Below are positions 1 through 16,190 of a stretch of DNA of 64,000 nt, in pieces. Source of the stretch: an uncultured Bacilli bacterium. GTDB taxonomy: Bacteria > Bacillota_I > Bacilli_A > RF39 > UBA660. The notes beneath the pieces are model-generated. The model searched no databases. It was not told where the DNA came from and worked only from the letters and a program-made list of their open reading frames with translations. Numbering within the stretch: the first letter of the stretch is position 1; each line of letters opens with the position of its first letter. The position numbers and the translations under genes were made by a program. The stretch is taken from the NCBI GenBank assembly GCA_934122395.1, contig CAKOWQ010000003.1:186299-250298 (forward strand), given 5' to 3'.

Positions 1-680
1 TATCTGATATACATGATTTGTTAGCACTTAAAATAATGGTAGATGAAGTAGAAAATTGCTATAGAACATTATATTTAATACATAATGAGTATCATCCAAT
101 AAACGATAAATTTAAAGATTATATTTGTAATCCAAAAACAAATATGTATCAAAGCTTACATACAACAGTTTTTGGACCTGATGATAGGTTAGTACAAACA
201 CAAATTAGAACTTTTGATATGGATAAAGTGGCATCCTTTGGTTTGACTGCATACTGGGATGAACAAAAGGGAAAAGCAAGAGATGCAATGCAAGATGATT
301 TAAAACAAAAATTTCAATTTTTCAAATCATTAACAGAAATTAATTCCATGTTCGGAGATAATCAACAATTTGTAAATCAAGTAAAGACTGAATTATTTGC
401 GGACAAAGTTTATGTTTATACCACAAAGGGTGATATAATAGAATTGCCAAAAGGGGCTACACCAATAGATTTTGCATATAAAATACATACTGATATAGGA
501 AATACAATGGTAGGAGTATTTGTAAATGATGAGTTTGTACCAATAGATTATGCATTAAGAAACAAAGATAGAGTTAGAATTGTCACTGATGAATTATCTT
601 ATGGACCAAGAGAAGATTGGATAGATAAAGCTCAAACAAGTTTAGCAAAAAGAAAAATAAGAGAATTTAATAAAAAGTAG
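1..680 (+). CDS. rel: RelA/SpoT-family (p)ppGpp synthetase/hydrolase, 3' part (gene begins upstream of the window); ends just after the TGS domain
   Basis: Synthetase-domain motifs DYICNPKTNMYQSLHTTV and QTQIRTFDMD, then TGS-like VYVYTTKGDIIELPKGATPIDFAYKIHTDIGN; the reading frame is open from the window edge; stop at 678-680. Confidence 0.9.
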   Translation, partial: SDIHDLLALKIMVDEVENCYRTLYLIHNEYHPINDKFKDYICNPKTNMYQSLHTTVFGPDDRLVQTQIRTFDMDKVASFGLTAYWDEQKGKARDAMQDDLKQKFQFFKSLTEINSMFGDNQQFVNQVKTELFADKVYVYTTKGDIIELPKGATPIDFAYKIHTDIGNTMVGVFVNDEFVPIDYALRNKDRVRIVTDELSYGPREDWIDKAQTSLAKRKIREFNKK

Positions 681-690
681 ACTGGAAGTA

Positions 691-1230
691 ATGAATGTGA
701 AAAGAAAATTTTCTAAGATTACAGAAACTAAATTTGTAAAAAAAGATATTATTTATCAAGATACAAAAGGAACGGTTTTTTGCATAAAATTTGATTCTAA
801 TATAACCCCTTCATTTGTTGAAGATGAAATACCTAAAATATGTATAAAAGATAAAGATTATATTTGGTTTGAATTTTATCCGAATGAAAAATCTTATTTA
901 TTAACTATAATGTTTGATGATAAACTAAATATTATTCAATGGTATTTTGATGTTTCCAAATTTGTTGAGTGTAACAATTGCATACCATATCAAGATGATT
1001 TATATCTAGATTTAGTTATTAAACCAACTGGGAAATTTAAAATACTTGATGAAGATGAATTGTATGAAGCATTACAAAAAAAAGAAATTACAATTGATGA
1101 ATTTAATTATGCATATGAAATATTAAATCAACTGATGAAAAAATTTGCTAATAATTATAATTACTTACTAAATTTAACTAACCATATCTTGAAGATGTTT
1201 GAGGAGGAAATAAAGAATGGAAAAATATAA
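691..1230 (+). CDS. DUF402-family protein (Ntdp/FomD-like nucleoside di/triphosphatase fold)
   Basis: WYFDVS...DDLYLDLVIKPTGKFKILDEDELYEA pattern typical of DUF402; ATG lies 10 nt after the rel stop. Confidence 0.6.
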   Translation: MNVKRKFSKITETKFVKKDIIYQDTKGTVFCIKFDSNITPSFVEDEIPKICIKDKDYIWFEFYPNEKSYLLTIMFDDKLNIIQWYFDVSKFVECNNCIPYQDDLYLDLVIKPTGKFKILDEDELYEALQKKEITIDEFNYAYEILNQLMKKFANNYNYLLNLTNHILKMFEEEIKNGKI

Positions 1231-2092
1231 TGGAAAATATGTAACTATAATGTTATGTTCACAATGTAATAATAATTGTAAACATTGCTATATAAGTTAT
1301 TCAGGAAGATTTGCTGATGAAGAATTATCAAGAATAATTCCAAATTTAAATGAAAAATATACAATTTTATTAAATGGTACAGAACCGATTATGTATCCTG
1401 AATATTATAAATATTTTAAAATGGTAAACGAACATAGAATAATAACAAACGGAATAACAATTCTTGAAAATCCAAATGTTTTGGATCAATTATCGGAAAA
1501 TGGAATTAATGAAGTTTGGCTTTCATACCATTTTGGTATTCAAAACGAAATATCAAGAATTAATGAAAATCAGTTAAATAATGTTATTCAGATTCTTAAA
1601 AAGAACAATTTTTTAGTAAAATTGATGTGTTCTTTATCAAAACATAATTATCAAAATGTTTCTAAATTCTGTGAAAGAGCATTAGAAATTGGAGCTGACA
1701 AAATAAAATTTACTAATTTTATTAGTCAAGGAAGTGCAAAAAGCAACTTTGATAACTCAGAATTTTTAAATCAAGAACAAATAAATTTTGTTTTGGAAGA
1801 AATAGAAAAAATGAGATCAATTATACCAAAGGAAGATTTGAATATACAAAGATGTGGAACATTTGGACCAAATATTCATAAAAACAATTTTCGATGTTTG
1901 GCTGGACAAGATATGATAGTTCTTACTCCAGATAGAAAACTATACAATTGTGTATTTAACATATCAAGTGATGATTGCATTGGATATATGGATAATGACT
2001 ATAATTTAATTATAAATTCAGAAGTTGCACCAATAAATCAATCATATTGTAAGGTACTAAAAAAACACAACGGAGTTGGAGGAATAAATTGA
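1217..2092 (+). CDS. Radical SAM protein with Cys-rich C-terminal (SPASM/twitch-like) region
   Basis: CNNNCKHC (CX3CX2C) near the N-terminus, GTEP (GGEP-like), C-terminal CGTFGP..FRCLAG..LYNC; SD GAGGAGG; overlaps the upstream gene by 14 nt. Confidence 0.8.
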   Translation: MEKYNGKYVTIMLCSQCNNNCKHCYISYSGRFADEELSRIIPNLNEKYTILLNGTEPIMYPEYYKYFKMVNEHRIITNGITILENPNVLDQLSENGINEVWLSYHFGIQNEISRINENQLNNVIQILKKNNFLVKLMCSLSKHNYQNVSKFCERALEIGADKIKFTNFISQGSAKSNFDNSEFLNQEQINFVLEEIEKMRSIIPKEDLNIQRCGTFGPNIHKNNFRCLAGQDMIVLTPDRKLYNCVFNISSDDCIGYMDNDYNLIINSEVAPINQSYCKVLKKHNGVGGIN

Positions 2093-3126
2093 AAATTTGT
2101 GGAAGAATTATAAATGTAAAACTAAAAACAAATGTATTGTTTTTATTGATTGAAAACAATAAAATCACACAAATAGTCATAAAAAATAATATTGAATATT
2201 TCTTAAATAATTTGAATGCTGGTGATATAGTTGAATGTCTCGTCACTAAAGATAGAAATAACAACGGAAAATATAAGCCAAAATATGATTCTTTTTTACT
2301 TAGAAGTCTAAAGATAATTAGTAAAAATAAAAAAAATTACAAATTAACATTAAATAAAACAAATATTATAAAATATAGTGATGTTAAATATGAAATAAGA
2401 AAATATTTACACAAATTAGGATATTTAGAAGTTACGTTGCCTATTTTAACTAATGGAGAAGTATCTTCAAAGTCAGAATCATTTTGTACTTTATATTCTA
2501 AGAAAAATATTAAATTATATTTGCGAAAAACTATGGACATATTTTTAAGAATGTATTCTTGTAGTGATTTTAATAAAATTTATTGTATAGGAAATTGCTA
2601 TAGAAATGAATATCTTACAAGTAAATATAAGCCAGAATTCGAAATGCTTTCCATCTTTAGCAATTATCTAAGTAAAAATAATGCAATAAAATTAGCTATA
2701 AAAATAATAAAAATTATAACTTCCAAGGATATTGAATGCAGTTTTATAGATGAAAAATCATATAATGAAATCACCCCGAGTGATAATACTTTTTATGTGA
2801 TAAATAATTATGCCAATTCTACAAATAGTTACTGTGATGTGCTTGAAAATGACAAAACAGATGAATTTAAAGTTAAATACAAAGGTGTTACCATTGTTCA
2901 TGGTGTAAGTGAAATATGCAATTATGATGAATATGTAAAAAAAATAGAGCTTCAAGGGAAAAAAGATGATTATGGTGAATTGCAAATTATTGAGAATTTA
3001 ATTGATTCTGGTGCTCCACAATGTTATAATCTGGGTATTAGTATAGTCAGACTTTTAAGTTTATATAATAATCTAAAAATTAAAGATTATGATATATTTT
3101 CATTTGATAGATTAGGAGAAATTTAA
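2089..3126 (+). CDS. Shortened class IIb aminoacyl-tRNA-synthetase paralog (LysRS/EpmA-like core with N-terminal OB fold), 345 aa
   Basis: OB-like KICGRIINVKLKTNVLFLLIENNKITQIVI..GDIVECLV; motif-1-like IRKYLHKLGYLEVTLPILT; motif 2 YCIGNCYRNE..YKPEFEMLS; motif-3-like GAPQCYNLGISIVRL; TTG start 7 nt after GGAGG, 4-nt overlap with the upstream gene. Confidence 0.65.
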   Translation: MKICGRIINVKLKTNVLFLLIENNKITQIVIKNNIEYFLNNLNAGDIVECLVTKDRNNNGKYKPKYDSFLLRSLKIISKNKKNYKLTLNKTNIIKYSDVKYEIRKYLHKLGYLEVTLPILTNGEVSSKSESFCTLYSKKNIKLYLRKTMDIFLRMYSCSDFNKIYCIGNCYRNEYLTSKYKPEFEMLSIFSNYLSKNNAIKLAIKIIKIITSKDIECSFIDEKSYNEITPSDNTFYVINNYANSTNSYCDVLENDKTDEFKVKYKGVTIVHGVSEICNYDEYVKKIELQGKKDDYGELQIIENLIDSGAPQCYNLGISIVRLLSLYNNLKIKDYDIFSFDRLGEI

Positions 3127-4203
3127 ATGAAAGAAGAAATTGATTTAAAAAAACTAACAAAAGAATATTTAAAATCTTATTATTCTATTAATTCTTATAT
3201 AGGATGTACAATAAATTGTGGATACTGTTTTTTAGCACCAATTAAAATAGTTCCAATGCGTCCAATAAAAGTCATAGATGAAAAAGAATTGATACGTAAT
3301 ATGATTAATGACAATTATTTTGAAAAAGGTAAAACTGTTATATCTTTGAATAATAGAACAGACCCATTTATATCACAAGAAGTTAAAAATAGTACTTTTA
3401 AATTATTAGATATTATGGAAGAATTGAATCTTAAAAATATTGTTACAATAACATCAAAAGGTCTATTAACTGAAGAAGATGCAAAAAAATTAGATAGTTA
3501 TAATAATATTAAAATCGTTATTATTGTAACTTATAATGGAATCCCTTTAAAAATACAACCTATTAATAAAATAAATCAAGAAAATACTATGAAAAATGTT
3601 TCAAAATGTAAAAATGTTTATTTGTTGCATCAATTTAGGCCTATTATTCCTGGGGTAAATGATGATGAAAAAACAATTAGAGAAGTAGTTGATTTTGCTA
3701 AAAAGTATTGTGATGCAACGATTTTCCAAGGAATTAGAGTTAACGATTATATAAAAAATAGACTTGAAGAAAGAGAATACTTGTATAGTGGTACAGTTGG
3801 TGATTCACATAAACAAAAAAGTGCGAGTACGGACGCGATATTTGAACAACTAAGACTTGAAGATAAAAATTATCAAATTTTCGATCATACATCCTGTGCT
3901 TTAAGTTATATTTTTAAAACGGCAGATTATAACTTACATTATTCTAAAAATAATTGCTCTAAATTGTGTAAAAATTATGAATTATGTCATAACTTAAATT
4001 ATAAATTACCTGTAGACTTAGAAGGTAAACTAAGAAAAATTGGTGTTAATTCCAATTGGGAGCTAAGGGATAAAACTTTAATAATTGATGGTTCATTAAA
4101 TGATGAACAAAAATCTTATATTAAACATATATTGAATCTTAATGTGAAAGCTAAAATTAGGGAAAATACATATTCAGAAAAAATAATGGAGGGAAAAAAG
4201 TGA
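3127..4203 (+). CDS. Radical SAM protein, COG1533/SplB-like (photolyase-like) family
   Basis: GCTINCGYC (CX3CX2C); NNRTDPFISQE, VTITSKG and FRPIIPGVNDDE match the family pattern; ATG directly abuts the upstream stop. Confidence 0.75.
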   Translation: MKEEIDLKKLTKEYLKSYYSINSYIGCTINCGYCFLAPIKIVPMRPIKVIDEKELIRNMINDNYFEKGKTVISLNNRTDPFISQEVKNSTFKLLDIMEELNLKNIVTITSKGLLTEEDAKKLDSYNNIKIVIIVTYNGIPLKIQPINKINQENTMKNVSKCKNVYLLHQFRPIIPGVNDDEKTIREVVDFAKKYCDATIFQGIRVNDYIKNRLEEREYLYSGTVGDSHKQKSASTDAIFEQLRLEDKNYQIFDHTSCALSYIFKTADYNLHYSKNNCSKLCKNYELCHNLNYKLPVDLEGKLRKIGVNSNWELRDKTLIIDGSLNDEQKSYIKHILNLNVKAKIRENTYSEKIMEGKK

Positions 4204-5474
4204 ATATAAAAATATTTTTTGATTTTCACGATGTATTTGTTGATGCAAAAAGCGCGTGGATTAAAGCATTAAAAGAAAAAACTAAATCAAATAAGGCAGA
4301 AATTGACTACAATAGAGGGTTATCAAAAAAAATAATATGCGAAAAATATAAATTAAATTATGAACAACTAGAAAAACTTTACAGAGTATATTTAAATCCA
4401 ATTAATGATAATATTGATTTTGCTGAAAAATTGAGTCAATCATATAAAATAAATATTTTATCTATGTCTAGAAAAGACAGATTACTTAAAGATATGCAAA
4501 AATTCAAACTTATTAATTTGTTTGATACGATAATCTCTAAAGAAGATATAATAGAATATAAAACAAAAGATGAATATTTAGTTTCTATTTCTTCTGATTA
4601 TGATTGGATTATATATTTTAATCATGAAAGTAATACTATTATTCAGAAAGATAATATTATTTATTTACCAGTAAATTTAAAAGGAGATTTATCTAAATTT
4701 AAAAATATTAGTTTTACTGAACATGCTAAAAACAAATTGCTATATAATGACTTATCTAAATATTATATGTATGCGATTGCTAATGATACTTCTTTGGAAA
4801 CAAACTTTTTATCAGAAATATATAAAAGATATAATTTGCCAACCGATGGAAAAATCCTTGATTGCTGTTGTGGTGTAGGACGACATGACTATTTACTTGC
4901 AAATGCTGGCTATCAGGTCACTGGAATCGATATTTCTAAAGAACAAATAACTAATGCAAAAAGAATTCATAATCATAAGAACATTGATTATCATGTTATG
5001 GATGTAAGGCATATTGATTTATTAGAAAAAAATTATGATATGTCAATTTGTATGTGGACAACTTACAATTATCTTTCCCAGGATAGTGATTTTGTAAGCT
5101 TTATCAAGTCAAATTATCAGCACCAACATAAAGGATCATTGATAGTATTAGATTCAAAAAACATTCCTAGATTAAATAATAGACGAGTTTATAAAAGAAA
5201 TAGTTCAACTGATAACGGAATAGAAATAGAACTAATTGTAAACAAATATATTATTAACAACATACAAAATTCACAATACCTATACTTTATAAAAGATAAA
5301 GACGATAAGAAATTTTATTTTGATGATGAATTCGTAAGATTTTATACTCTTGATGAAATTACAAAATTGGTAAATGAGTATTACGAAGTGGTAGATGTAT
5401 TTGGAGATTTTGATTTTAGTTCCTATGATAAAAAAATGAGTAATAGATTTATTGTGGTATTAAGGAGAAAGTAA
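4200..5474 (+). CDS. Two-domain protein: degenerate HAD-like N-terminus fused to a class I SAM-dependent methyltransferase
   Basis: MTase motif I ILDCCCGVGRH and VTGIDIS; N-terminal IFFDFHDVFVD resembles HAD motif I, but the second Asp position is His; GTG start after GGAGGG; 4-nt overlap. Confidence 0.7.
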   Translation: MNIKIFFDFHDVFVDAKSAWIKALKEKTKSNKAEIDYNRGLSKKIICEKYKLNYEQLEKLYRVYLNPINDNIDFAEKLSQSYKINILSMSRKDRLLKDMQKFKLINLFDTIISKEDIIEYKTKDEYLVSISSDYDWIIYFNHESNTIIQKDNIIYLPVNLKGDLSKFKNISFTEHAKNKLLYNDLSKYYMYAIANDTSLETNFLSEIYKRYNLPTDGKILDCCCGVGRHDYLLANAGYQVTGIDISKEQITNAKRIHNHKNIDYHVMDVRHIDLLEKNYDMSICMWTTYNYLSQDSDFVSFIKSNYQHQHKGSLIVLDSKNIPRLNNRRVYKRNSSTDNGIEIELIVNKYIINNIQNSQYLYFIKDKDDKKFYFDDEFVRFYTLDEITKLVNEYYEVVDVFGDFDFSSYDKKMSNRFIVVLRRK

Positions 5475-5983
5475 TGAATAATGAATTAAAAAAATTAAAT
5501 TCATTATTTGATGGTAGTGATGAATCTGCTATGAATATTGCATATGACATTGCACATAAATATTCTTCTTGCAGATTATGTGGAGTTGGTAAAGGTGTTG
5601 GTGCAGTTATAATTAAAGATAATAAAATAATTTGTTATGGATATAATGGTATAATTGATAATATTAAACCATGCACTAAAGATAGTTGTCTAAGAATATC
5701 TAGAAATATTGAACATGGCACAAGAAGAGATGAATGTTATGGAGATTGTGCAGAAAAACGTGCATTCATTAATGCTTACCAAAATAATATAGACATAAAA
5801 AACTCAAAAATATATATTACAAAATCTCCTTGTGTATCATGCTGTAAATTACTAATTAATTTAGGAATAAAAGAAGTCATATATAATGAAATATATAGTA
5901 ATTCAGATTTTTCTTTTGAACTTTTAAATTTAGCTAGAATTAAATATAAAAAATTAGAAAATTTTTATAGAGATGATCATTAA
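5474..5983 (+). CDS. dCMP/cytidine-deaminase-superfamily zinc enzyme (ComEB/dCMP-deaminase-like)
   Basis: CAEKRAF ... SPCVSCCKLLINLGIKEVIY (C/H-A-E ... PCxxC); extra Cys/His cluster KPCTKDSCLR..H..C upstream as in dCMP deaminases; SD AAGGAG; 1-nt overlap. Confidence 0.8.
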   Translation: MNNELKKLNSLFDGSDESAMNIAYDIAHKYSSCRLCGVGKGVGAVIIKDNKIICYGYNGIIDNIKPCTKDSCLRISRNIEHGTRRDECYGDCAEKRAFINAYQNNIDIKNSKIYITKSPCVSCCKLLINLGIKEVIYNEIYSNSDFSFELLNLARIKYKKLENFYRDDH

Positions 5984-6015
5984 AATTTTAAATATATAAT
6001 TTTTTTTAAAAATAG

Positions 6016-6044
6016 TTGAAATTTTAAAAAAGAAATTGTAAAAT
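6016..6044 (+). promoter_or_regulatory. Sigma-A-type promoter for the thrS leader
   Basis: TTGAAA (6016-6021), 17-nt spacer, TAAAAT (6039-6044). Confidence 0.5.
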
Positions 6045-6049
6045 AATAA

Positions 6050-6265
6050 ATATGTTAAATGTATTGATTGGGACACGGCTAATAACAATTATTTACAAAG
6101 CGAATTGTGGAAGGTGAAAGGCAATTAAATAACTTATTAGTTACTACCCATAAACAGGACTCGAAAGATGTTCCCGGTAATAGCCGTTATTAGTAATTAA
6201 GTTAAACCAAGGATGGTACCGTGTAATTCACTCCTGTTAGAATTTCTAGCAGGAGTTTTTATTTT
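6050..6265 (+). promoter_or_regulatory. T-box leader (tRNA-Thr-responsive transcription attenuator) of thrS
   Basis: T-box core AACCAAGGATGGTACCGTG (6206-6224); intrinsic terminator CTCCTGTTAG/CTAGCAGGAG plus T-run (6231-6265); candidate Thr specifier ACU/ACC at 6143-6148; sits upstream of thrS. Confidence 0.85.
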
Positions 6266-6279
6266 TAGGGGGAAAATAA

Positions 6280-6465
6280 ATGAACGAAACAAAGAAAGAG
6301 TTAAAAAGACAATTATTTGAATTAAGATTAGCTCAAGCATTTTATATATCAGAACATAAAGAAGATAGTGAAGAAATAGTAAAAGATATTAAGGTATTGA
6401 AAAAGAAATATGCAAGAGTATTGCTTAATGAAAAAATGGGAGGAAAAGAAAATGATAAACATTAA
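6280..6465 (+). CDS. Small helical Lys/Glu-rich protein (61 aa), unknown function, between the T-box terminator and thrS
   Basis: ATG preceded by GGGGGA SD; 3' end overlaps the thrS start by 14 nt; no recognisable domain. Confidence 0.45.
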   Translation: MNETKKELKRQLFELRLAQAFYISEHKEDSEEIVKDIKVLKKKYARVLLNEKMGGKENDKH

Positions 6466-8197
6466 AGAAGATGAAAAATTAAGTGTTATGAATCACTCAT
6501 GTGCTCATTTACTAGCACAAGCAGTAAAACATTTATATCCAAAAGCATTATTTTGGGTAGGACCTGTTATAGAAGATGGATTCTATTATGATATAGATTT
6601 AGGTGATGAATCTATTAATGATGAAGATTTAGCAAGAATTGAAAAAGAAATGAAGAAAATTGCTAAAGATGGAAAGAGAATTGTAAGAGAAGAAATAAGT
6701 AAAGAAGAAGCTTTAGAAAGATTTAAAAATGATCCATATAAAATAGATTTAATTTCTAGGATGGATGAAAATGATACAGTTATTTCTTGCTATACTCAGG
6801 GAGATTTTACTGACCTTTGTAGAGGACCACATCTTGAAAGTGTTAAAGAATTAAAGTATTTTAAATTACTCAAAGTAAGTGGTGCTTATTGGAAAGGTGA
6901 TTCTAATAACAAAATGCTTCAAAGAATTTATGGCATTTGTTTTGATAATGAAAATTCTTTAAGTGAATATTTGGCTTTTTTAGAAGAAGCTAAGAAAAGG
7001 GATCATAAAAAACTAGGTAAGGAATTAGATTTATTTATGATGAGTGAATATGGTCCAGGATTTCCTTTCTTCTTAAATAATGGAATGATTTTAAGAAATC
7101 AATTAGAAAATTTTTGGTATGAAGAACATACTAAAGAAGGGTATGAATTTGTTAAAACTCCAATTATGTTAAATAAAGAACTTTGGGAATTATCTGGACA
7201 CTGGTTTAATTATAGAGAAAATATGTATACAAGTGAAATTGATGATAAAGTATTTGCAATTAAACCTATGAACTGTCCTGGTGGAATGCTTGTATATAAA
7301 AATTCTCTTCATTCTTATAAAGATTTACCATTAAGAATCGGAGAATTAGGTCAAGTACATAGACATGAAGCAAGCGGAGCATTAAACGGTCTATTTAGAG
7401 TTAGAACATTTACGCAAGATGATGCTCATATATTTATGAGAGAAGATCAAATAGAAGAAGAAGTTATAAGATTAATTAACTTTATAGATAGAATGTATTC
7501 TATATTTGGATTAACTTATGATATTGAATTATCGACTAGACCAGAAGAAAAATATATTGGAAGTATTGAAATTTGGAATAAATCTGAAAAAGCTTTAGAA
7601 GAAGCATGTCATAGAGCAGGACATGATTGTAAAATAAATCCTGGTGATGGTGCTTTCTATGGACCTAAATTAGACTTTCATATTAAAGATTCTTTGGGTA
7701 GAGTATGGCAATGTGGAACAATTCAACTTGATATGAATTTACCAGAAAGATTTGATTTAACATATATTAGTTCTGATGGAAGTAAGAAAAGACCAGTTAT
7801 GTTACATCGCGTAATATATGGCTCAATTGAAAGATTTATTGGTATTTTAATTGAACATTATGCTGGAGCATTTCCACTTTGGCTTAGTCCAGTACAAGTA
7901 AATATTATTCCAGTTAATAATGAACTACATATGAATTATTGTAATGAAATTAAGAATTTACTTGAAGAAAATAATATTAGGGTTAAAGTTGATGCTAGAG
8001 ATGAAAAATTAGGATATAAAATGCGTGAAAGTCAAATCAAAAAAATACCTATAACTTTAATTATTGGAGATAATGAAGTTAATAAAAAACAAATTAGTTA
8101 TCGTAAATATGGAAATCAAGAAACTTATACTTGTGAAATTGATGAATTTATTAGTGAAATTAGTAAATGCTTAAAAGATAAAAAATATAATATTTAA
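6452..8197 (+). CDS. thrS: Threonyl-tRNA synthetase (no N-terminal TGS domain)
   Basis: HSCAHLLAQAV editing-domain motif at the N-terminus, class II core (FRVRTFTQDDAHIF, GAFYGPKLDF), anticodon domain; start moved to ATG 6452 (GGAGG 8 nt upstream) from the ORF-track 6410. Confidence 0.95.
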   Translation: MINIKEDEKLSVMNHSCAHLLAQAVKHLYPKALFWVGPVIEDGFYYDIDLGDESINDEDLARIEKEMKKIAKDGKRIVREEISKEEALERFKNDPYKIDLISRMDENDTVISCYTQGDFTDLCRGPHLESVKELKYFKLLKVSGAYWKGDSNNKMLQRIYGICFDNENSLSEYLAFLEEAKKRDHKKLGKELDLFMMSEYGPGFPFFLNNGMILRNQLENFWYEEHTKEGYEFVKTPIMLNKELWELSGHWFNYRENMYTSEIDDKVFAIKPMNCPGGMLVYKNSLHSYKDLPLRIGELGQVHRHEASGALNGLFRVRTFTQDDAHIFMREDQIEEEVIRLINFIDRMYSIFGLTYDIELSTRPEEKYIGSIEIWNKSEKALEEACHRAGHDCKINPGDGAFYGPKLDFHIKDSLGRVWQCGTIQLDMNLPERFDLTYISSDGSKKRPVMLHRVIYGSIERFIGILIEHYAGAFPLWLSPVQVNIIPVNNELHMNYCNEIKNLLEENNIRVKVDARDEKLGYKMRESQIKKIPITLIIGDNEVNKKQISYRKYGNQETYTCEIDEFISEISKCLKDKKYNI

Positions 8198-8227
8198 AAT
8201 TAGAAATGTAAGATGTTATTGGTTATA

Positions 8228-8251
8228 AAGACGAGATTTCGTCTTTTTTTA
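8228..8251 (+). terminator. Intrinsic terminator after thrS
   Basis: AAGACGA-GATT-TCGTCTT followed by a T-run. Confidence 0.8.
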
Positions 8252-8293
8252 GTTTGTGGTATAATTTTGTTAGAAATATAGGTGTGATTAAAT

Positions 8294-8890
8294 ATGAAAA
8301 AAGATATTAAACATTATAAACAATCTGGAAACGCTTGTGCTATAGCATGTTTGTTAATGATTTTGGAGTATTATGATGTGATTACAAAAGCTAATTATGT
8401 TTATGAGAAAAAGTACTATAATTCATATTCTTCTCAATATTTATTAGGAGTTCCGTTATCAGCAGTATTTTGGCATTTAATAAAGAATAATATAAATGCT
8501 GAAATGTTTCATTCAGAAAAAAACTTGTTTTCTAATAATAAACAAATAATTGACAATAATATTTTTAATCTTGCAATTATTGAATATAAAGAGTATCTGG
8601 AATATGCAATTCTAAAAGGCGCCAAAGTATACAATGGTGTAAATATAAATATCGATTTAATACAAGAAAAGGTCAAAGACAATTTCATTATTCTTGCTGG
8701 GGTAATCAATCAGAATTTTCATACTATTTTAATTACTTCTTTTAAAAATGATTACTTTATAGTTAATAATCCTGCAGTTAATGTATCTACAAATATAGAA
8801 GGTGAAAAAGTTAATGAGTTTATGAATACTGATATTGGAAAATGGTTTATCGCAATACCAAAAGGAGAAGTCTATGAAAAAGAAATATGA
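8294..8890 (+). CDS. Stand-alone C39-like (papain-fold) cysteine peptidase domain protein
   Basis: N-terminal Q-x4-C motif YKQSGNACAIACLLMILEYY; later FHTILITSF and VNNP could supply the His and Asn/Asp. Confidence 0.55.
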   Translation: MKKDIKHYKQSGNACAIACLLMILEYYDVITKANYVYEKKYYNSYSSQYLLGVPLSAVFWHLIKNNINAEMFHSEKNLFSNNKQIIDNNIFNLAIIEYKEYLEYAILKGAKVYNGVNINIDLIQEKVKDNFIILAGVINQNFHTILITSFKNDYFIVNNPAVNVSTNIEGEKVNEFMNTDIGKWFIAIPKGEVYEKEI

Positions 8891-9569
8891 AGATGATAAT
8901 TATGTTATATATTATCCTGATGCTTTAGAGGAGTTTGTAAATGATATGATAATTTGTACTAAGGCACAGATAAATAATATATATACTTTCTTTAATGTAA
9001 AAAATCTTAGAAAAATTCAAGTTAATTTATTTGATAATATAGATGAATTTAGAAAATTTGTTATTGATTTGCGTAGTGGTGATGAAAAATCATTACCTCA
9101 GTATGCAAAGGGAACTTTTGATGATGGGATGATTAATGCTTATATTGAACCTAACTTCATTAAAACTTCTAGTCTTTATGAAAAAAGAAAACGCATGATG
9201 CTACATGAAACTGTTCATTTGATATATAATGAAATTCTTTTAATGAATAATTTTGATAATAGAGTAGTATGGCTTGATGAAGGCCTTGCTCAAAACTTAT
9301 CTTTAGAAGAAGAGAAAAATGATAAAAAAATTAAGCAAAGTATTATTTCTAACAATATAGCAATTGATATAAATGATTTGAGTCATGGGGATATTTTTAT
9401 TACTAGTGAATATAACGGTTATGATTTATCATATTTTGCAGTTAGATATTTATTAGATACTTTGAATAGTAAACAAATAATAGAAATTATAAAAGATAAA
9501 GATAAGGCAATTAAACTTGGTAAGACAATAATTATAGACGCAATTAATTTTTATAAAAGGAGAGTATAA
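8874..9569 (+). CDS. Putative zinc metallopeptidase (peptidase MA-like, HExxH)
   Basis: MLHETVHLIY (HExxH) followed by WLDEGLAQ; start set at ATG 8874 (AGGAGAAG SD); overlaps the upstream gene by 17 nt. Confidence 0.55.
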   Translation: MKKKYEDDNYVIYYPDALEEFVNDMIICTKAQINNIYTFFNVKNLRKIQVNLFDNIDEFRKFVIDLRSGDEKSLPQYAKGTFDDGMINAYIEPNFIKTSSLYEKRKRMMLHETVHLIYNEILLMNNFDNRVVWLDEGLAQNLSLEEEKNDKKIKQSIISNNIAIDINDLSHGDIFITSEYNGYDLSYFAVRYLLDTLNSKQIIEIIKDKDKAIKLGKTIIIDAINFYKRRV

Positions 9570-9570
9570 T

Positions 9571-10587
9571 ATGAAAGAATTTATAACTAATGATAATAAT
9601 TTAAAAGAAGAAGATGTAACTGAAATAGTAAAGAGAGTAAAAGTATTAATAATTAATTCAAGTAATGAAGTGTTACTAGGATATTCTCACAATGATTATC
9701 AATTCCCTGGGGGACATGTTGAAGATGGTGAAACTTTGTTAGATACTGTTAATAGAGAAGTTATGGAAGAAGTAGGGATTAACTTAAATGTTAAAGAACT
9801 AAAACCTTTTGCAAAGATGATAGGTTATTATAAAGATTGGCCAGCAATAGGGAAAAATAGAAAAATCGAAATATATTATTATGAAGTTAAAACTGATGAA
9901 AAACCTAACTTGGATAATTTGCAGTTAACTGAGTATGAAAAGGATGGGGGATTTTGTCTTAAATATATTCCTCTTGAAAATATAGAAGAAGAACTTATTA
10001 ATAATATCAATATATATAGTGATAAACATGGTATAACCAAAGAAATGTTAGAGGTGCTTGAGTATTATAAAAAAGAAAAAAGCAAACTAAAACTCGAAAA
10101 TTTGAAATGTGTAGATAATAATATTGATTTGGATAAATACATAAATTTTTATAATAAATTAAAAGCAACTATGGAAGATCCGTCATGGTTAGGAGATTTT
10201 ACTAAAACCGATATAGAATTTATACTAAATAATGGTGGTAAGATATGGATTTATTATTTAAATAATGATCCTGTTTGTTCTATGATGTATATTCCATCTT
10301 CTATAAAAAGTTGTCAAAAACTATTAGATGGTAAGTATGATTATAGAGAAGTTATAGATTATGGCCCTATGATGGTATGGTGCGATTATTTTGGTAATAG
10401 TCTTCAATATCAAATGTTAGAGGTATTAGATGAGTATTCAAGAAATAATGGCAAGAAATATGCTGTTAGCACAGTTCATCCTGATAATGTTTATTCTATT
10501 AATAATTTATTAAAAGATGATTTTAAACATATTGGTACTAAAACTTTTACTAGAGGAGAAAGAAATATATATTTCAAAGCACTTTAG
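9571..10587 (+). CDS. Nudix hydrolase fused to a GNAT-like C-terminal domain
   Basis: Nudix box GGHVEDGETLLDTVNREVMEEVGI; the C-terminal half has a GNAT-like pattern (..NSLQYQMLEVLDEYSRNNGKKYAVSTVHPDNVYSINNLLKDDF). Confidence 0.7.
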   Translation: MKEFITNDNNLKEEDVTEIVKRVKVLIINSSNEVLLGYSHNDYQFPGGHVEDGETLLDTVNREVMEEVGINLNVKELKPFAKMIGYYKDWPAIGKNRKIEIYYYEVKTDEKPNLDNLQLTEYEKDGGFCLKYIPLENIEEELINNINIYSDKHGITKEMLEVLEYYKKEKSKLKLENLKCVDNNIDLDKYINFYNKLKATMEDPSWLGDFTKTDIEFILNNGGKIWIYYLNNDPVCSMMYIPSSIKSCQKLLDGKYDYREVIDYGPMMVWCDYFGNSLQYQMLEVLDEYSRNNGKKYAVSTVHPDNVYSINNLLKDDFKHIGTKTFTRGERNIYFKAL

Positions 10588-12367: not shown

Positions 12368-14323
12368 ATGGAAAACTTTAAAATTAATGAAAAAAAATTA
12401 GAAGAATTAGATAATACATCTATTTCTAAAAAACAATTAACAGGGTATGCATCTATTGATACACCTTGGATGAAGTGGTATAACGAATCATTAAAAGATG
12501 TTGATTTTAAACATACTAACTGTTACGATTACTTTTTTGAAGTAACAAAAGAATTTAATTGGCCATTATGGGAATATTATGGTCGTAAATATACTGTTAA
12601 GGACATAAAGAAAGAAACGGATAAAATTATTAAAAAGTTAACAGCTATGGGTATTAAAGAAGGGGATACAGTATCATTTATATTCTTAAATGTACCTGAA
12701 ACTTTATTCTTCCATTTGGCATTATCTAAAATGGGAGCAATTACTAATTTAATTAAATTTGATGAACCTGCTGAACGTATTAAGTTCATGTGTGATTTAG
12801 CAAAATCTAGATATTTATTTGCAACAGAGATTCCACCTATTATAGATAATGTATTAGAAGCCTTAGATTTAGGTTGTGGTGTTGACCAAGTTATTTCTGT
12901 ACCGCTTACTGAAGCTATGCCTAAAGTTGCAGTATTAAACATGTTACATGAACAAAGTAAAAATAACATTCTAGAAGGTAAATCTACTGCTAATATATTG
13001 GTTGAAATGTCAAATCAATATAAAAGAACTCTTGAAATGCAAAAAAAATTGCAATCAAAGATTCTTACAAATCCACGTTTTATGACATATGATGATTGGA
13101 AGAAGAAATATAATGGGAATGACATGAATGTTATTACAGGTGGTGCTGATAACGTATCAGTTATTGTATATACTGGAGGTACTACTGGTAGTCCTAAAGG
13201 TGTAGAATTAACTAATGATAATTTAAATGCAAGTTCTCATGCTTTTACTAGAAGTGATATGGACTTTGATCCAAAAAGAACTTCTATGAGTATATTACCA
13301 CCATCAATTGCTTATTACTTCAATGCTACATACCAATTAATGTGTTGCGGTGTTAGTGTTAATTTGATTTCTAACTTTACTGTTCCAGAATATCCAAAAT
13401 TAATCGCTAAACATAAGCCTAATATATTTATGGCTGGTCCAATATTATTAAAAGAAATAGCAAAAGCTGATATTATGGATGATGTATCATTTATGATTGC
13501 ACCAATATCAGGTGGAGATAAATTAGAAGTATCTTTAGAGGAAGCATTTAATAATTACTTAAAAGAACATAATGGAGACACTATAGTTCGTCAAGGTTAT
13601 GGTTCAAGTGAATGTACTGCTGCTGCTACTTATATTAATAGACATGCAGCTAAATCAGATTGCCTTGGAAGTATTGGTATACCATTAATAGATATGACAG
13701 TTGCTATATTTGATTATATTCCATATGATGAATTCGATATGAATAATTTGGAAGAAAAGAAATATGGAGAAATAGGTGAGATTTGTATAACTGGACCTAC
13801 AGTAATGAAAGGTTATAGAGACAATCCTGAAGCAACTAATCAAGTGTTAAGAACGCATAAAGATGGTAAAGTATGGTTACATACTGATGACCTTGGATTT
13901 ATGGATGAGGATGGTAGAGTATACCACCGTGGTAGAGCTAAACGTATGCTTACAAGATCTGGTTCTAAAGTATGGTTATCACCTATAGAAGATGAGATTT
14001 CTAAACATCCAATGGTTGATGCTTGCTGTTGTGTTAAACTAGCTGATGAAGAAGAAAGTGAAGTTCCAGTAGCTCATATCGTATTAAAAGATGGTGCTTC
14101 ATTTGAAGAAGTTGCAAATGAATTGGATACCATGGTATCTAAAAATAATCCAGAAGTATATGTTCCAAAATATTATGTTAAACGTGATGAATTGCCAGTT
14201 ACAGAAGTCAACAAAAAAGTTAACTTTAGAGCATTAGAAAGTGAAGATATCTTTGATACCAAAGATTATTCAGTAAATGGTAAATTAATTACTAAGAAAA
14301 ACAAAGTAAAAGTTATGAAATAA
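12368..14323 (+). CDS. AMP-dependent synthetase/ligase (acyl-CoA-synthetase-like adenylate-forming enzyme)
   Basis: AMP-binding motif YTGGTTGSPKGVELT; GYGSSECT; GEICITGPTVMKGY; DGRVYHRGRAKRM. Confidence 0.85.
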   Translation: MENFKINEKKLEELDNTSISKKQLTGYASIDTPWMKWYNESLKDVDFKHTNCYDYFFEVTKEFNWPLWEYYGRKYTVKDIKKETDKIIKKLTAMGIKEGDTVSFIFLNVPETLFFHLALSKMGAITNLIKFDEPAERIKFMCDLAKSRYLFATEIPPIIDNVLEALDLGCGVDQVISVPLTEAMPKVAVLNMLHEQSKNNILEGKSTANILVEMSNQYKRTLEMQKKLQSKILTNPRFMTYDDWKKKYNGNDMNVITGGADNVSVIVYTGGTTGSPKGVELTNDNLNASSHAFTRSDMDFDPKRTSMSILPPSIAYYFNATYQLMCCGVSVNLISNFTVPEYPKLIAKHKPNIFMAGPILLKEIAKADIMDDVSFMIAPISGGDKLEVSLEEAFNNYLKEHNGDTIVRQGYGSSECTAAATYINRHAAKSDCLGSIGIPLIDMTVAIFDYIPYDEFDMNNLEEKKYGEIGEICITGPTVMKGYRDNPEATNQVLRTHKDGKVWLHTDDLGFMDEDGRVYHRGRAKRMLTRSGSKVWLSPIEDEISKHPMVDACCCVKLADEEESEVPVAHIVLKDGASFEEVANELDTMVSKNNPEVYVPKYYVKRDELPVTEVNKKVNFRALESEDIFDTKDYSVNGKLITKKNKVKVMK

Positions 14324-14331
14324 AGTGTCAA

Positions 14332-14367
14332 AAAGATGATTTTTATATAGATAAATCATCTTTTTTT
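14332..14367 (+). terminator. Intrinsic terminator
   Basis: AAAGATGATTT ... AAATCATCTTT followed by a T-run. Confidence 0.75.
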
Positions 14368-14393
14368 GTTATAATAATAATAGAGGTGACGAT

Positions 14394-16190
14394 ATGAATA
14401 GTATAGCTTATACAATAATTTCATGTATATTTAGTATTATTCTATTAATTGTTTATTTTAGCAAAGAAAGAATCAATTATATAGAAAACAAAATTTACTC
14501 AATAATAGTAATTACAACATTTGTAAGTTGCTTTACTGAGATAGTTAGCTTTGTTTTAGTTAAGAGTGGAGTATCAGCTTCTTCACTACTATATCATTAT
14601 GTTATTAAGTTATTGTTTTTAGGCTTTTTAACATGGCTTTATTTGTTTACTCTTTATACGGTTGCGGTTGGTCGAAAACTAAGGGGTGTACTAAGAGACA
14701 ATGCTCTACCTGCAAGAAAACTTACGGCAGGTTTTGTTTTAATAGCTTTAATAGTTCTTCTTTTACCGCTTCAAATAATAGAAACTAATGGGCTATTATT
14801 ACCAGTTGGTACTAGTGTTATGTTAATCTATATTTTAGCAATGATGTGTATTATTGTAATGATTATATCGATGATTTTAGGAAGAAAAAACTTAAGAAGC
14901 AGAAAATATATTCCTTTATATTTGTTAATATTTTTCTTTTCTGTAGTTTTACTTGTTCAAAAATTATTACCAGAATTATTTTTAATAAATCCGGCTTTTG
15001 TAGTTATTACTTTCTCAATGTATTTTACTATTGAGAACCCTGATATGAATATGGTTGACGAATTAATTGAAAATAAAAAACTAATTGAGCGAGCAGCTGA
15101 AGAAAAATCTATTTTCTTATTTAAAATGAGTCAAGGATTAAAAGAACCAGTTAATGCAATCGACAAGCAAATTAAAATATTTGAATCTAATAATTTGACT
15201 AAAAAAGATGTAGCTATTCTTATGGAAAATATTAATCAAAATAATCAGAAGATGAGTTATCTAATTAACGATGTTATAGGACTTAACTCATTTAACAATA
15301 ATATTAAAAAAGTAGAGAATACGTATAATATTTATTCGTTATTGGAAGACGTAAGAGTTCGTTCTAAAGGATATATTGCTAAGAATATAGATTATAGTTT
15401 TACTTCAGTATCAAGTATGCCTAAAGAGTTATATGGAGATGCAATTAAATTAAAACAAGTACTAATGTCTGTTATAATTAATGCTAGTAAAAATACTAAG
15501 AGTGGTTATATTCATGTAGATGTTAATTCATATACTAAGTTTGATATATGTAGACTAGTAATTATGATTGATAGTTCTAGTGATATAAGTATTAAAAAGA
15601 TTAATGAAATTCTAAACCAAGATTTAGAAATTTCGGATAAGGATTATTTAAAAATAGAAAAACTAGATGTTGATTTACCACTTGCTTATAAGATTATCAA
15701 ATCAATTGGTGGTACAATGTTCATTAAGAGTGAAGATGACAAAGGAAGCCGTGTTACTATAACTATTGACCAATATATCGTTGATAATGGTGAGATGAAA
15801 TTAAATAGTAAAGTAGATGCATACTTAAAAGCTCGTTCTAATTTTAAAAGAGTTTTAGTTGTTGATGATGATGAACAAGAGTGTAGGAAAATTAAAACTG
15901 CATTAGAAAAGATGGGATATGAAGTATCAGTTTCTATGTTTGGTAATGATTGTATAGAACGTATTAAAAATGGTGAAAAATATGAGTTTCTTTTAATAGA
16001 TGATGAACTAGAAGAGATGAGTGCTTTAAGTGTTATTCAAGCGATTGATGGATTAAAAGATAAAAGTAAGCGAATAGTAATGCTTGAAGAAGATAAGTTG
16101 TTTATTGCTAAGCATTATTTAAAAGATGGATTCTATAATTACATAGATAAAACTAACTTAATAGAAGAGCTAAAAAATAAATGCCATTAA
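14394..16190 (+). CDS. Polytopic membrane hybrid histidine-kinase-like protein with C-terminal receiver; H-box His replaced by Gln
   Basis: About 6-7 N-terminal TM helices; H-box-like FKMSQGLKEPVNAI (SQGLKEPV versus the SHELRTPL consensus); N-box IINASKNT; G2-like GGTMFIKSEDDKGSRVTI; receiver VLVVDDDE ... FLLIDDELEEMS. Confidence 0.7.
   Translation: MNSIAYTIISCIFSIILLIVYFSKERINYIENKIYSIIVITTFVSCFTEIVSFVLVKSGVSASSLLYHYVIKLLFLGFLTWLYLFTLYTVAVGRKLRGVLRDNALPARKLTAGFVLIALIVLLLPLQIIETNGLLLPVGTSVMLIYILAMMCIIVMIISMILGRKNLRSRKYIPLYLLIFFFSVVLLVQKLLPELFLINPAFVVITFSMYFTIENPDMNMVDELIENKKLIERAAEEKSIFLFKMSQGLKEPVNAIDKQIKIFESNNLTKKDVAILMENINQNNQKMSYLINDVIGLNSFNNNIKKVENTYNIYSLLEDVRVRSKGYIAKNIDYSFTSVSSMPKELYGDAIKLKQVLMSVIINASKNTKSGYIHVDVNSYTKFDICRLVIMIDSSSDISIKKINEILNQDLEISDKDYLKIEKLDVDLPLAYKIIKSIGGTMFIKSEDDKGSRVTITIDQYIVDNGEMKLNSKVDAYLKARSNFKRVLVVDDDEQECRKIKTALEKMGYEVSVSMFGNDCIERIKNGEKYEFLLIDDELEEMSALSVIQAIDGLKDKSKRIVMLEEDKLFIAKHYLKDGFYNYIDKTNLIEELKNKCH

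Follow-up and report, generated by a model that had tools for sequence, protein, structure and literature searches.

A gene cassette combining a lysyl-tRNA synthetase paralogue with radical SAM enzymes behind rel in an uncultured Bacilli bacterium, and its possible link to modified nucleosides

The window analysed here is a stretch of 64,000 nucleotides from an uncultured Bacilli bacterium (assembly GCA_934122395.1, contig CAKOWQ010000003.1, positions 186,299 to 250,298), in which six tightly packed genes lie between rel and thrS (Table 1). They code for a DUF402 protein, a first radical S-adenosylmethionine (SAM) enzyme (rSAM1), a ligase derived from class II lysyl-tRNA synthetase (LysRS) and called aaRSl below, a second radical SAM enzyme resembling spore photoproduct lyase (SPL) and called rSAM2, a fusion of a haloacid dehalogenase-like domain with a methyltransferase (HAD/MT), and a zinc deaminase. 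Comparison with other loci shows that aaRSl, rSAM2 and HAD, with or without the methyltransferase domain and joined by the deaminase in the subtype of the window, form a recurrent unit and a real functional one. This cassette is rare and undescribed: its parts are members of known enzyme superfamilies, and its overall logic resembles that of nucleoside natural-product and nucleotide-conflict pathways. A full-text literature search found no description of the cassette or of the rSAM2 family, and no curated hidden Markov model covers the cassette.

An earlier note, made from the letters of this DNA, had described the operon anatomy, which a re-reading of the open reading frames (ORFs) and a hairpin scan bore out. 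Ten nucleotides separate the rel stop (680) from the first gene, and the junctions that follow are a 14-nt overlap, a 4-nt overlap, a direct abutment, a 4-nt overlap and a 1-nt overlap. Shine-Dalgarno boxes precede genes two to six (GAGGAGG, GGAGG, AGGAG, GGAGGG and AGGAG), with only GGAAG in front of the DUF402 gene. In positions 1-8400, scanned on both strands, the only terminator-like hairpins lie at 6230-6256, in the T-box leader, and at 8227-8246, after thrS; none was found between rel and 5983, and rel through 5983 may plausibly be read as a single transcript. The T-box matches RF00230 at 62.9 bits, below the gathering score of 93 (E 1.6e-13, model positions 1-219 covered); its specifier is ACU (Thr) and its terminator is a 12-bp stem followed by a U-run. 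The GC content of the six cassette genes, overall and at third codon positions, is that of the flanking genes, so the composition gives no sign of recent import.

Table 1. Coordinates of the cassette genes and flanking features in the window
Feature	Position	Strand	Length	Remarks
3' part of rel	18-680	+		Pfam RelA_SpoT and TGS; context gene
DUF402 gene	691-1230	+	179 aa	
rSAM1 (first radical SAM)	1217-2092	+	291 aa	
aaRSl (LysRS-derived class II ligase)	2089-3126	+	345 aa	
rSAM2 (SPL-like radical SAM)	3127-4203	+	358 aa	
HAD-methyltransferase fusion	4200-5474	+	424 aa	
dCMP-deaminase/ComEB-like zinc deaminase	5474-5983	+	169 aa	
Threonine T-box leader, divergent	6055-6256	+		RF00230 match and hairpin (terminator 6230-6256); predicted 3' boundary of the cassette transcript
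thrS	6452-8197	+	581 aa	Length from ATG with Shine-Dalgarno GGGAGG; no TGS; genuine threonyl-tRNA synthetase by Pfam content

Pfam and NCBIfam searches returned all six of the fold assignments that the same note had proposed (DUF402, two Radical_SAM, LysRS-like, HAD plus class I methyltransferase, and dCMP_cyt_deam_1). For each of the six proteins, scores against the characterised NCBIfam families stay below the curated cut-offs.

The best-conserved protein of the cassette is rSAM2. It carries a CX3CX2C motif near its N-terminus (C27, C31 and C34, all invariant) and a C-terminal alpha/beta domain; C257, C281 and C287 are invariant as well and C277 is kept in about 90% of members. Its AlphaFold2 model has a mean predicted local distance difference test (pLDDT) score of 92, and the best PDB fold detected by Foldseek is that of SPL (4k9r/4fhc, E 2e-6, template-modelling (TM) score 0.53-0.57). 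By sequence, neither the single protein nor the family profile had a significant match in the PDB. Among curated models rSAM2 matches rSAM mobile pair B and PA0069 weakly (E ~3e-4), far below their cut-offs, and it matches no SPL model. The superfamily comprises 855 clusters at E≤1e-3 among 1.84 billion representatives and includes fusions (P0330, P0296, P0366, P0328) to TIR, to a nucleoside 2-deoxyribosyltransferase (NDT)-like domain, to TCAD9 plus an APH-type kinase, and to a GT2 glycosyltransferase. Two IMG/VR scans and a tblastn search of GenBank phages yielded no viral relatives. On these empty searches a phage origin or a phage DNA hypermodification module was rejected; fold matches in BFVD were to generic radical SAM enzymes. 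The sole other characterised SPL-like enzyme that we found is gp53 of Pseudomonas phage M6, which isomerises N-alpha-glycinyl-thymidine in DNA, with the amino acid on the thymine 5-methylene (PMC8989533).

The ligase is a truncated relative of LysRS. It matches tRNA-synt_2 at E 2.6e-26, LysRS is its best NCBIfam match, and its family profile retrieves LysRS from the PDB at E 2.5e-27. It nevertheless scores far below the curated models (74.6 bits versus 468 for NF001756 and 68.2 versus 427.6 for TIGR00499) and is not a full-length LysRS: it has 345 aa against about 490, and its catalytic domain is shorter by some 90 residues in the stretch from motif 2 to motif 3. Class II motifs 1-3 are kept, P118, R172, N173, F184, E185 and R321 being invariant in one ligase alignment (A1). 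Its N-terminal ~85 residues form an oligonucleotide-binding (OB) fold that aligns to the anticodon-binding domain of LysRS (residues 61-160). Among 11 cassette ligases at 19-48% identity, the only invariant columns are R6, F18 and Q28 of the OB fold and R172 of motif 2; position 11 holds K or R throughout, and R321, the arginine of motif 3, is nearly invariant. In human LysRS, F144 forms a stack with U35/U36, and the same bases are bonded by R136 and Q155 (PMC11643047); K/R11, F18 and Q28 of aaRSl are the equivalents of R136, F144 and Q155. These residues make it very probable that aaRSl has kept its ability to bind ATP and an anticodon-like loop.

Its amino-acid pocket has been remodelled. 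We take the lysine pocket of E. coli LysRS to consist of E240, E278, Y280, N424, F426 and E428; at the aligned positions aaRSl of the window has D150, S188, F190, H271, V273 and E275, five of the six differing under this assumed numbering, and one of the changed positions is presumably the glutamate that binds the alpha-amino group. The canonical set is kept, at these same assumed positions, in the cassette ligases of two loci, L038 and L043 (labels of this form denote the loci compared). Close relatives of aaRSl fall into 34 clusters, full-length or fragmentary and 42-97% identical, all from metagenomes or metagenome-assembled genomes (MAGs), two of them labelled Bacilli or 'bacterium'. A pyrrolysine-type orthogonal synthetase/tRNA pair was ruled out, since no tRNA gene was found in any of 20 cassette loci scanned; the window cassette itself has no non-coding gap. 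Modification of elongation factor P (EF-P) in the manner of EpmA/EpmB was ruled out too, given the presence of the OB domain, the absence of an aminomutase-type radical SAM enzyme and a score of 63.4 bits against 264 for NF006828.

The HAD domain of the fusion (residues ~1-157) matches PF13419 (HAD_2) at 25.5 bits, above the cut-off of 23.8. Motif I reads D8-F-H10-D11-V, with His at Asp+2, and motif IV is N-H142-E in the type of the window and G-N-D..E-D in a more distant type, called type II below. Described as degenerate in the earlier note, this head turned out to be unusual instead: D8, H10, D11, S88 and H142 are invariant in the family alignment, the domain models as a capped HAD (pLDDT 90 for the fusion; a Rossmannoid core with a four-helix insertion right after motif I) and it is the near-constant neighbour of rSAM2. 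The invariant residues suggest that it may be catalytically competent. Its cap is of the C1 type, which is associated with small substrates. The methyltransferase domain has a class I fold with an invariant DCCCGVGRH motif. Its PDB neighbours in Foldseek (E 1e-17 to 1e-12, target-normalised TM score mostly 0.64-0.85) are small-molecule enzymes, mostly amine N-methyltransferases: CgnL, CcbJ, CypM, NmbA, KedS8, CalS10, DesVI and TylM1, among which TylM1 and DesVI act on dTDP-aminosugars and CcbJ is an amino-acid N-methyltransferase. No RNA methyltransferase occurs among its top 50 fold matches. In type II cassettes HAD and methyltransferase are separate adjacent genes. Methyltransferase homologues without radical SAM or ligase also lie directly after ASCH-domain genes, one 44% identical in Acetivibrio cellulolyticus (L058, 9578-11134 of JH556653.1) and one 55% identical (L060, 9287-11098), the latter inside a SpoU-rimM-trmD-rplS...ylqF-rnhB housekeeping operon, beside ASCH fragments.

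Three further proteins complete the operon of the window. The DUF402 (Ntdp/FomD-type) protein matches PF04167 at 46.8 bits (cut-off 23.9) and the FomD equivalog at 16.5 (cut-off 320); its nearest PDB entry, S. aureus SA1684, is a weak match (E 0.087). The gene is present in the window group and in L009, absent from L006, L023 and L024, and fused to a GNAT domain downstream of thrS in L003. rSAM1 matches Radical_SAM at E 6.7e-6 and has a CX3CX2C motif and a SPASM/twitch-like C-terminal cysteine motif; its matches to SPASM/twitch maturases, MoaA and BlsE are weak and sub-threshold, and its viperin scores (16 bits versus 180 for NF038283; E 3.8e-7 for PADLOC pVip) are below viperin membership. 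In the loci compared it occurs only in the window group, L006/7 and L010. DUF402 and rSAM1 are thus lineage-specific additions and not part of the core. The deaminase has the cytidine deaminase (CDA) fold with its PCxxC motif (PF00383, 58.3 bits), reaches 71.9 bits against the ComEB model TIGR02571 (cut-off 219, so below family membership) and has S. mutans dCMP deaminase as nearest PDB entry (2hvv, E 2.7e-16). C-A-E aligns to H-A-E of dCMP deaminases; the first zinc ligand is a Cys, and the insertion before it carries extra cysteines. Frequent in the subtype of the window (L003, L008, L011, L023 and L024), the gene is absent from L006.

To compare loci, we fetched the contigs of distant aaRSl members and searched them by BLAST with the proteins of the window; scanning metagenome contigs with an rSAM2 profile added 36 loci, which were then clustered. 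In the window group the order is rel-DUF402-rSAM1-aaRSl-rSAM2-HAD/MT-deaminase-thrS. Variants of it are rel-rSAM1-aaRSl-rSAM2-HAD/MT-thrS (L006), thrS-DUF402-aaRSl-rSAM2-HAD/MT (L009) and aaRSl-rSAM2-HAD-deaminase-thrS with HAD only, followed by the GNAT-DUF402 fusion (L003). L023 and L024 (GC 51%) have aaRSl-rSAM2-HAD/MT-deaminase without rel and thrS. In L011 (GC 43%) aaRSl is fused to rSAM2 by deletion and is followed by HAD/MT-deaminase-thrS. The fusion, in a MAG labelled Oscillospiraceae, is a 241-aa ORF (7998-8723) that joins ligase residues 143-225 to rSAM2 residues 208-355 by an in-frame deletion; HAD/MT, deaminase and thrS are intact there, and asnS and asnA lie upstream. L008 was rejected as a decayed cassette: its frameshifts also break thrS and are therefore probably assembly errors, which translation tables 4 and 25 did not repair.

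More distant versions occur in other settings. The order in the L014 subtype is rSAM2-HAD/MT-aaRSl, with a ligase of 444 aa that is 30% identical to that of the window over its full length; an S66 peptidase, NUDIX and GNATs follow and a recombinase is nearby. Immunity of the MccF/MccE type beside L014 was rejected and is kept as a weak hint only, the S66 and GNAT proteins being generic by NCBIfam (LdcA-like, 86 bits versus 378; RimI/RimL-like). Type II cassettes, whose rSAM2 is 25-33% identical, contain a LysRS-like ligase, a B12-binding-type radical SAM enzyme, rSAM2, HAD and a class I methyltransferase; downstream are an S51 peptidase and class I LysRS, a small P-loop kinase-like protein, or GT2 and a SPASM radical SAM enzyme. 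A further subtype, in MAGs labelled Selenomonas sp., has a thymidylate kinase (Tmk)-like gene, rSAM2 and a methyltransferase without HAD head behind HSP70-like and HerA/FtsK-like genes. In L016 (995-10042), L018 and L025 (GC 41-60%, some labelled Selenomonas sp.), the genes upstream of rSAM2 code for the HSP70-like protein, the HerA/FtsK-like ATPase (1,100 aa, with PADLOC HerA and mad8 matches), two paralogous 195-aa proteins and the Tmk-like protein.

Finally, plasmids of cultured Streptomyces, rhizobia, Labrenzia/Roseibium and Nostoc carry a ~26%-identical radical SAM gene with DEDDh exonuclease and P-loop ATPase genes, in some cases with thymidylate synthase (TS)-like, nucleoside diphosphate kinase (NDK)-like or HD genes, near DNA methylases, toxin-antitoxin genes and recombinases. 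A Streptomyces coelicoflavus NBC_00357 plasmid (L055, 6812-12063) has rSAM2-like, DEDDh 3'-5' exonuclease and AAA_28 P-loop ATPase genes, then an aldo/keto reductase, and a Labrenzia sp. CP4 plasmid (L056, 9094-12713) has the same module followed by an HD protein. Modules of this kind may also include TS-like and NDK-like genes, and they adjoin N6 DNA methylase, toxin-antitoxin and recombinase genes. They look like an undescribed nucleotide-centred system.

Taken over all loci, rSAM2 is followed by HAD almost everywhere, and aaRSl, rSAM2 and HAD(/MT) occur together down to ~30% ligase identity in three gene orders. Deaminase and methyltransferase domain are each missing from some cassettes, several versions have no ligase, and some adjoin recombinases or insertion sequences or sit on plasmids. 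The earlier note had taken the six genes as one set: co-occurrence in other genomes holds for aaRSl, rSAM2 and HAD/MT and, in this subtype, for the deaminase, and fails for DUF402 and rSAM1, so that a fixed six-gene unit has to be abandoned.

The position behind rel appears to be a slot for such cassettes. In the genome of L044, whose Rel is 85% identical to that of the window, a type II cassette with a ~28%-identical rSAM2 directly follows rel after a 19-nt gap, so that close relatives carry, in one and the same slot, cassettes that have diverged very far. Its genes (1-8477; the same set is found in L039) are a LysRS-like ligase, B12-type and SPL-like radical SAM enzymes, HAD, methyltransferase, S51 peptidase and class I LysRS. 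The link with rel was seen in one group of related low-GC genomes, with two cassette types, and is absent elsewhere. Complete copies of rel in L001 (7150-8592) and L002 code for 480 aa with HD, RelA_SpoT and TGS domains only; Rel of this lineage ends ~30 residues past TGS and lacks the C-terminal regulatory half of long RelA/SpoT homologues, and the same is true of L006. Genuine synthetases are frequent neighbours. Threonyl-tRNA synthetase (ThrRS) flanks at least six type I lineages (window, L003, L006, L008, L011 and, on the upstream side, L009), class I LysRS flanks L039, L044 and L047, and an essentially canonical class II LysRS stands in the ligase position of L038 and L043. The LysRS neighbours fit the ancestry of the ligase. 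ThrRS itself varies, lacking the N-terminal TGS domain in the window and having it beside the L003 cassette (638 aa, 13560-15476). The 64-kb window contains neither a second thrS nor any lysS or lysK.

What could such a cassette produce? Our tentative preference, which we hold as a possibility, is that it acts as an accessory pathway whose end point is a pyrimidine nucleoside or nucleotide in modified and possibly aminoacylated form. The starting compound would be a pyrimidine (deoxy)nucleotide, open to C-to-U editing by the dCMP-deaminase-like enzyme and remodelled by the radical chemistry of rSAM2, with the assistance of rSAM1 in the lineage of the window; the HAD domain would strip a phosphate handle. 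The LysRS paralogue would activate a lysine-like or other amino acid as the adenylate and then attach or deliver it, the methyltransferase would N-methylate an amino group, and the DUF402 protein might trim or detoxify nucleotide forms. What results would be a nucleoside or nucleotide that is modified and probably carries an amino acid. It might be used in conflicts among microbes or with phages, an aminoacyl-tRNA synthetase (aaRS) being one possible target, in which case the genuine synthetase neighbours could be related to target or immunity.

Several observations argue for this scheme. The capped HAD domain, the small-molecule-type N-methyltransferase and the recurrent free-nucleotide partners (deaminase and DUF402; in other versions Tmk-, TS- and NDK-like, NUDIX, P-loop ATPase, HD, P-loop kinase-like) indicate that the substrates are nucleotides or nucleosides in free form, probably of the pyrimidine kind. 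The near-constant pairing of rSAM2 with HAD suggests a radical step on a phosphorylated substrate followed by dephosphorylation, and the combination of an amino-acid-activating enzyme with an amine methyltransferase is consistent with an amino-acid-bearing, N-methylated nucleoside. A patchy, swappable and sometimes mobile distribution, together with the TIR, NDT and TCAD fusions, suggests a role in conflict and not in housekeeping. The proposed order, with a radical SAM step on a nucleotide followed by phosphatase, amino-acid ligation and N-methylation, follows the logic of the polyoxin/nikkomycin pathways (PolH/PolJ, cryptic phosphorylation), and synthetase genes are known inside clusters for aaRS inhibitors, e.g. 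the SerRS gene in the albomycin cluster. Of the proposals in the earlier note, an aminoacyl- or peptidyl-nucleoside metabolite is the one that fits the enzyme-level evidence best. Its blasticidin analogy survives in logic and not in orthology, rSAM1 scoring 22.9 bits against a BlsE cut-off of 400. For its idea of a nucleotide-depleting module no specific support emerged.

Other facts weigh against the nucleoside pathway. Every assignment stands at fold or superfamily level, and the S66, GNAT and NUDIX neighbours of other versions are generic by NCBIfam. The anticodon triad is the most conserved feature of aaRSl and would be superfluous in a small-molecule ligase, which points to tRNA as substrate, donor or guide; the 55%-identical methyltransferase homologue, without rSAM2 or aaRSl, in the rimM-trmD-rplS operon beside ASCH has an RNA-flavoured context. 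No exporter or obvious immunity gene was found in the operon of the window, and hosts that are small-genome gut Bacilli MAGs with native composition would be unusual for an antibiotic cluster.

Some of these facts are better accommodated if the substrate is a tRNA, and the invariant triad has kept alive the earlier suggestion of a tRNA or nucleic-acid hypermodification. In this chief rival, aaRSl might dock through its OB fold on a U35/U36 (tRNA-Lys-like) tRNA and transfer its amino acid to a base of the loop, which we find rather doubtful; by analogy with MnmL/MnmM and gp53, the SPL-like radical SAM enzyme and the N-methyltransferase could then build or finish a side chain of the 5-substituted uridine type. 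The fuller version, in which the anticodon guides the ligase to a loop base of a U35/U36 tRNA and rSAM2, HAD and N-methyltransferase build or finish the side chain, as a new hypermodification or a tRNA-directed conflict system with swappable versions beside rel and genuine ThrRS or LysRS genes in gut bacteria, is unlikely. Enzymes such as GluQRS (acting on queuosine-34), TilS, TmcAL and MnmL/MnmM are precedents for such a hypermodification, and 5-carboxymethylaminomethyluridine is the ribo-analogue of the gp53 substrate. Besides gp53, which works on glycinyl-thymidine within nucleic acid (PMC8989533), this proposal draws on R6, F18, Q28 and K/R11, as conserved as the motif-2 arginine and equivalent to residues that touch U35/U36 (PMC11643047), on the canonical class II or flanking class I LysRS of some cassettes, on a translation-related neighbourhood (rel, T-box thrS, lysK) and on the ASCH neighbours of methyltransferase homologues in the rimM-trmD-rplS operon and in Acetivibrio cellulolyticus. 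It has to contend with a capped HAD and a methyltransferase that looks like a small-molecule enzyme and has no RNA methyltransferase among its top 50 fold matches, and with partners that act on free nucleotides (deaminase, Tmk-, TS- and NDK-like, NUDIX, DUF402). Several cassette versions lack the ligase, no base-insertion enzyme is present, and a patchy, swappable, mobile-element-linked spread with TIR, NDT and TCAD fusions is atypical of tRNA modification genes. A narrower idea, a variant of the nucleoside pathway, reads aaRSl as a drug-insensitive replacement LysRS: the other enzymes would make a nucleoside aimed at LysRS, and aaRSl would confer immunity to it. The preserved triad and ATP-binding arginines, the remodelled amino-acid pocket, the canonical-looking class II LysRS (L038, L043) or class I LysRS (L039, L044, L047) in or beside the slot, and the cassettes without any ligase would all suit it. 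We hold it to be very improbable, as five of the six lysine-contact positions are changed (under the E. coli numbering assumed above), ~90 catalytic-domain residues are missing and the synthetase flanking the cassette of the window is ThrRS, not LysRS; L039, L044 and L038 hold both the paralogue and a genuine LysRS, which argues for separate roles.

The same signs of conflict could also reflect an antiviral nucleotide factory in the manner of viperin and its kinases, in which a pyrimidine nucleotide would be turned on infection into a chain-terminating or toxic analogue or a signal while the other enzymes set its phosphorylation. Relatives of rSAM2 are fused to TIR, NDT-like and TCAD9 plus APH domains, or lie beside the HerA/FtsK-like ATPase (PADLOC HerA, mad8), the HSP70-like protein and the Tmk-like kinase; those on plasmids lie beside DEDDh exonuclease, P-loop ATPase and HD genes, near N6 DNA methylase, toxin-antitoxin and recombinase genes, and cassette types are swapped between close relatives. 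All these defence-flavoured contexts belong to distant (~26-53% identical) versions without ligase. The cassette of the window stands in a housekeeping setting, with apparent read-through from rel and without a sensor or effector gene, and the nucleotide-based defences known so far have no place for a LysRS-derived ligase. A known defence system was rejected, since PADLOC (like PHROGs) gave only generic domain matches for the window proteins and no PADLOC model and no viperin model matched rSAM2. The deaminase reaches 52.6 bits against 400 for the anti-phage dCTP deaminase NF041025, aligns to profile positions 340-393 of 437 only and lacks the N-terminal partner domain. On balance, an antiviral function of this kind is decidedly unlikely. 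Still less can be said for unrelated housekeeping genes that merely share a rel-thrS transcript in one lineage, to which we give hardly any credence. Such a null explanation would account for the native composition and the housekeeping flanks, for a dCMP deaminase, expected in any small genome, and for the origin of most thrS- or rel-linked examples from related low-GC genomes. It does not account for the recurrence of aaRSl-rSAM2-HAD/MT without rel or thrS at GC 51% (L023, L024), with another order and other neighbours (L014) and as a ~28%-identical type II version, nor for proteins that reach no curated family cut-off and belong to small families (34 ligase clusters and 855 rSAM2-superfamily clusters).

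Genes next to the cassette call for brief mention. Between the T-box terminator and thrS, a 61-aa ORF (6280-6465, plus strand) with a strong Shine-Dalgarno box (AGGGGG) codes for a helical, lysine-rich protein, and its stop overlaps the thrS start; it measures 56 aa in L001. An L29 paralogue was considered and rejected, as the ORF has no Pfam match and is kept only in near-identical genomes. Downstream of thrS (8294-10587) are a C39_2-like peptidase, an MA_2 (HExxH) peptidase and a 338-aa NUDIX protein, whose conservation is limited to near-identical genomes; in L019/L020, which are 94% identical, they differ, and we do not count them in the cassette.

If the small-molecule interpretation is true, abundant uncultured gut Bacilli have a compact route to a new metabolite of the amino-acid/nucleoside type, a class rich in translation inhibitors, with ligation or delivery by a synthetase paralogue instead of the usual ATP-grasp or amide ligases. 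If tRNA is the substrate, the chemistry at the wobble position or elsewhere in the anticodon loop would be new and would have its own anticodon-reading ligase, possibly something categorically new. Either way, a small family of SPL-like radical SAM enzymes (855 clusters) gains its first functional lead, and the recruitment of aaRS paralogues a clean test case. Cassettes repeatedly adjoin genuine ThrRS and LysRS genes and a C-terminally truncated Rel, a pattern that lends itself to direct testing.

Among known systems, the pathways of peptidyl- and aminoacyl-nucleoside antibiotics (polyoxin/nikkomycin, blasticidin S, albomycin) come close in logic to the proposed route: a radical SAM enzyme acts on a nucleotide, phosphate is removed, an amino acid is attached at the expense of ATP, and N-methylation and a CDA-fold deaminase also occur. 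As in albomycin, a genuine aaRS gene lies within or adjoins the cluster. However, no enzyme is orthologous to those of such pathways (rSAM1 is far from the BlsE cut-off, as stated above), the cassette ligase is a class II LysRS paralogue with an intact anticodon signature and not an ATP-grasp or amide synthetase, glycosyl- and enolpyruvyl-transferases and an exporter are absent, and the hosts are small-genome gut Bacilli. Unlike the microcin C system with its ThiF/E1-like adenylyltransferase MccB, the cassette of the window has no ThiF-like gene; no search for a precursor peptide was made. Prokaryotic viperins with nucleotide kinases, which make modified nucleotides in a conflict setting, resemble the type Ic and plasmid versions in layout, a radical SAM gene beside kinases; rSAM2 is not viperin-like, though, and viperin systems have no ligase, HAD or methyltransferase.

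EpmA/PoxA, which beta-lysylates EF-P, and GluQRS/YadB, which makes glutamyl-queuosine in tRNA-Asp, are likewise truncated synthetase paralogues and put an amino acid elsewhere than on the tRNA 3' end. EpmA is moreover derived from LysRS and has a radical SAM partner (EpmB). EpmA and GluQRS are not known to have an anticodon-binding domain, whereas aaRSl keeps the OB domain with its U35/U36 triad invariant; the radical SAM partners here belong to the SPL-like and twitch types, and none of their matches is to a lysine-2,3-aminomutase family. Compared with SplB, rSAM2 has in it the best structural match and the same N-terminal CX3CX2C cluster. It differs from SplB in sequence (12-14% identity, no SPL family model), in its extra invariant cysteines and C-terminal domain, and in organisms and context without any link to spore DNA repair. 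From the thymidine hypermodification of phage M6 the cassette is set apart by the absence of 5-HMUDK and aGPT-Pplase, by aaRS-type activation, by its chromosomal loci and by accessory enzymes that resemble small-molecule and not DNA enzymes (PMC8989533). The M6 pathway nevertheless includes P-loop kinases and thymidylate-synthase-like enzymes, and similar partners stand beside distant relatives of rSAM2; like the cassette as we read it, M6 couples a free amino acid to a pyrimidine by a route that includes an SPL-like radical SAM enzyme (PMC8989533).

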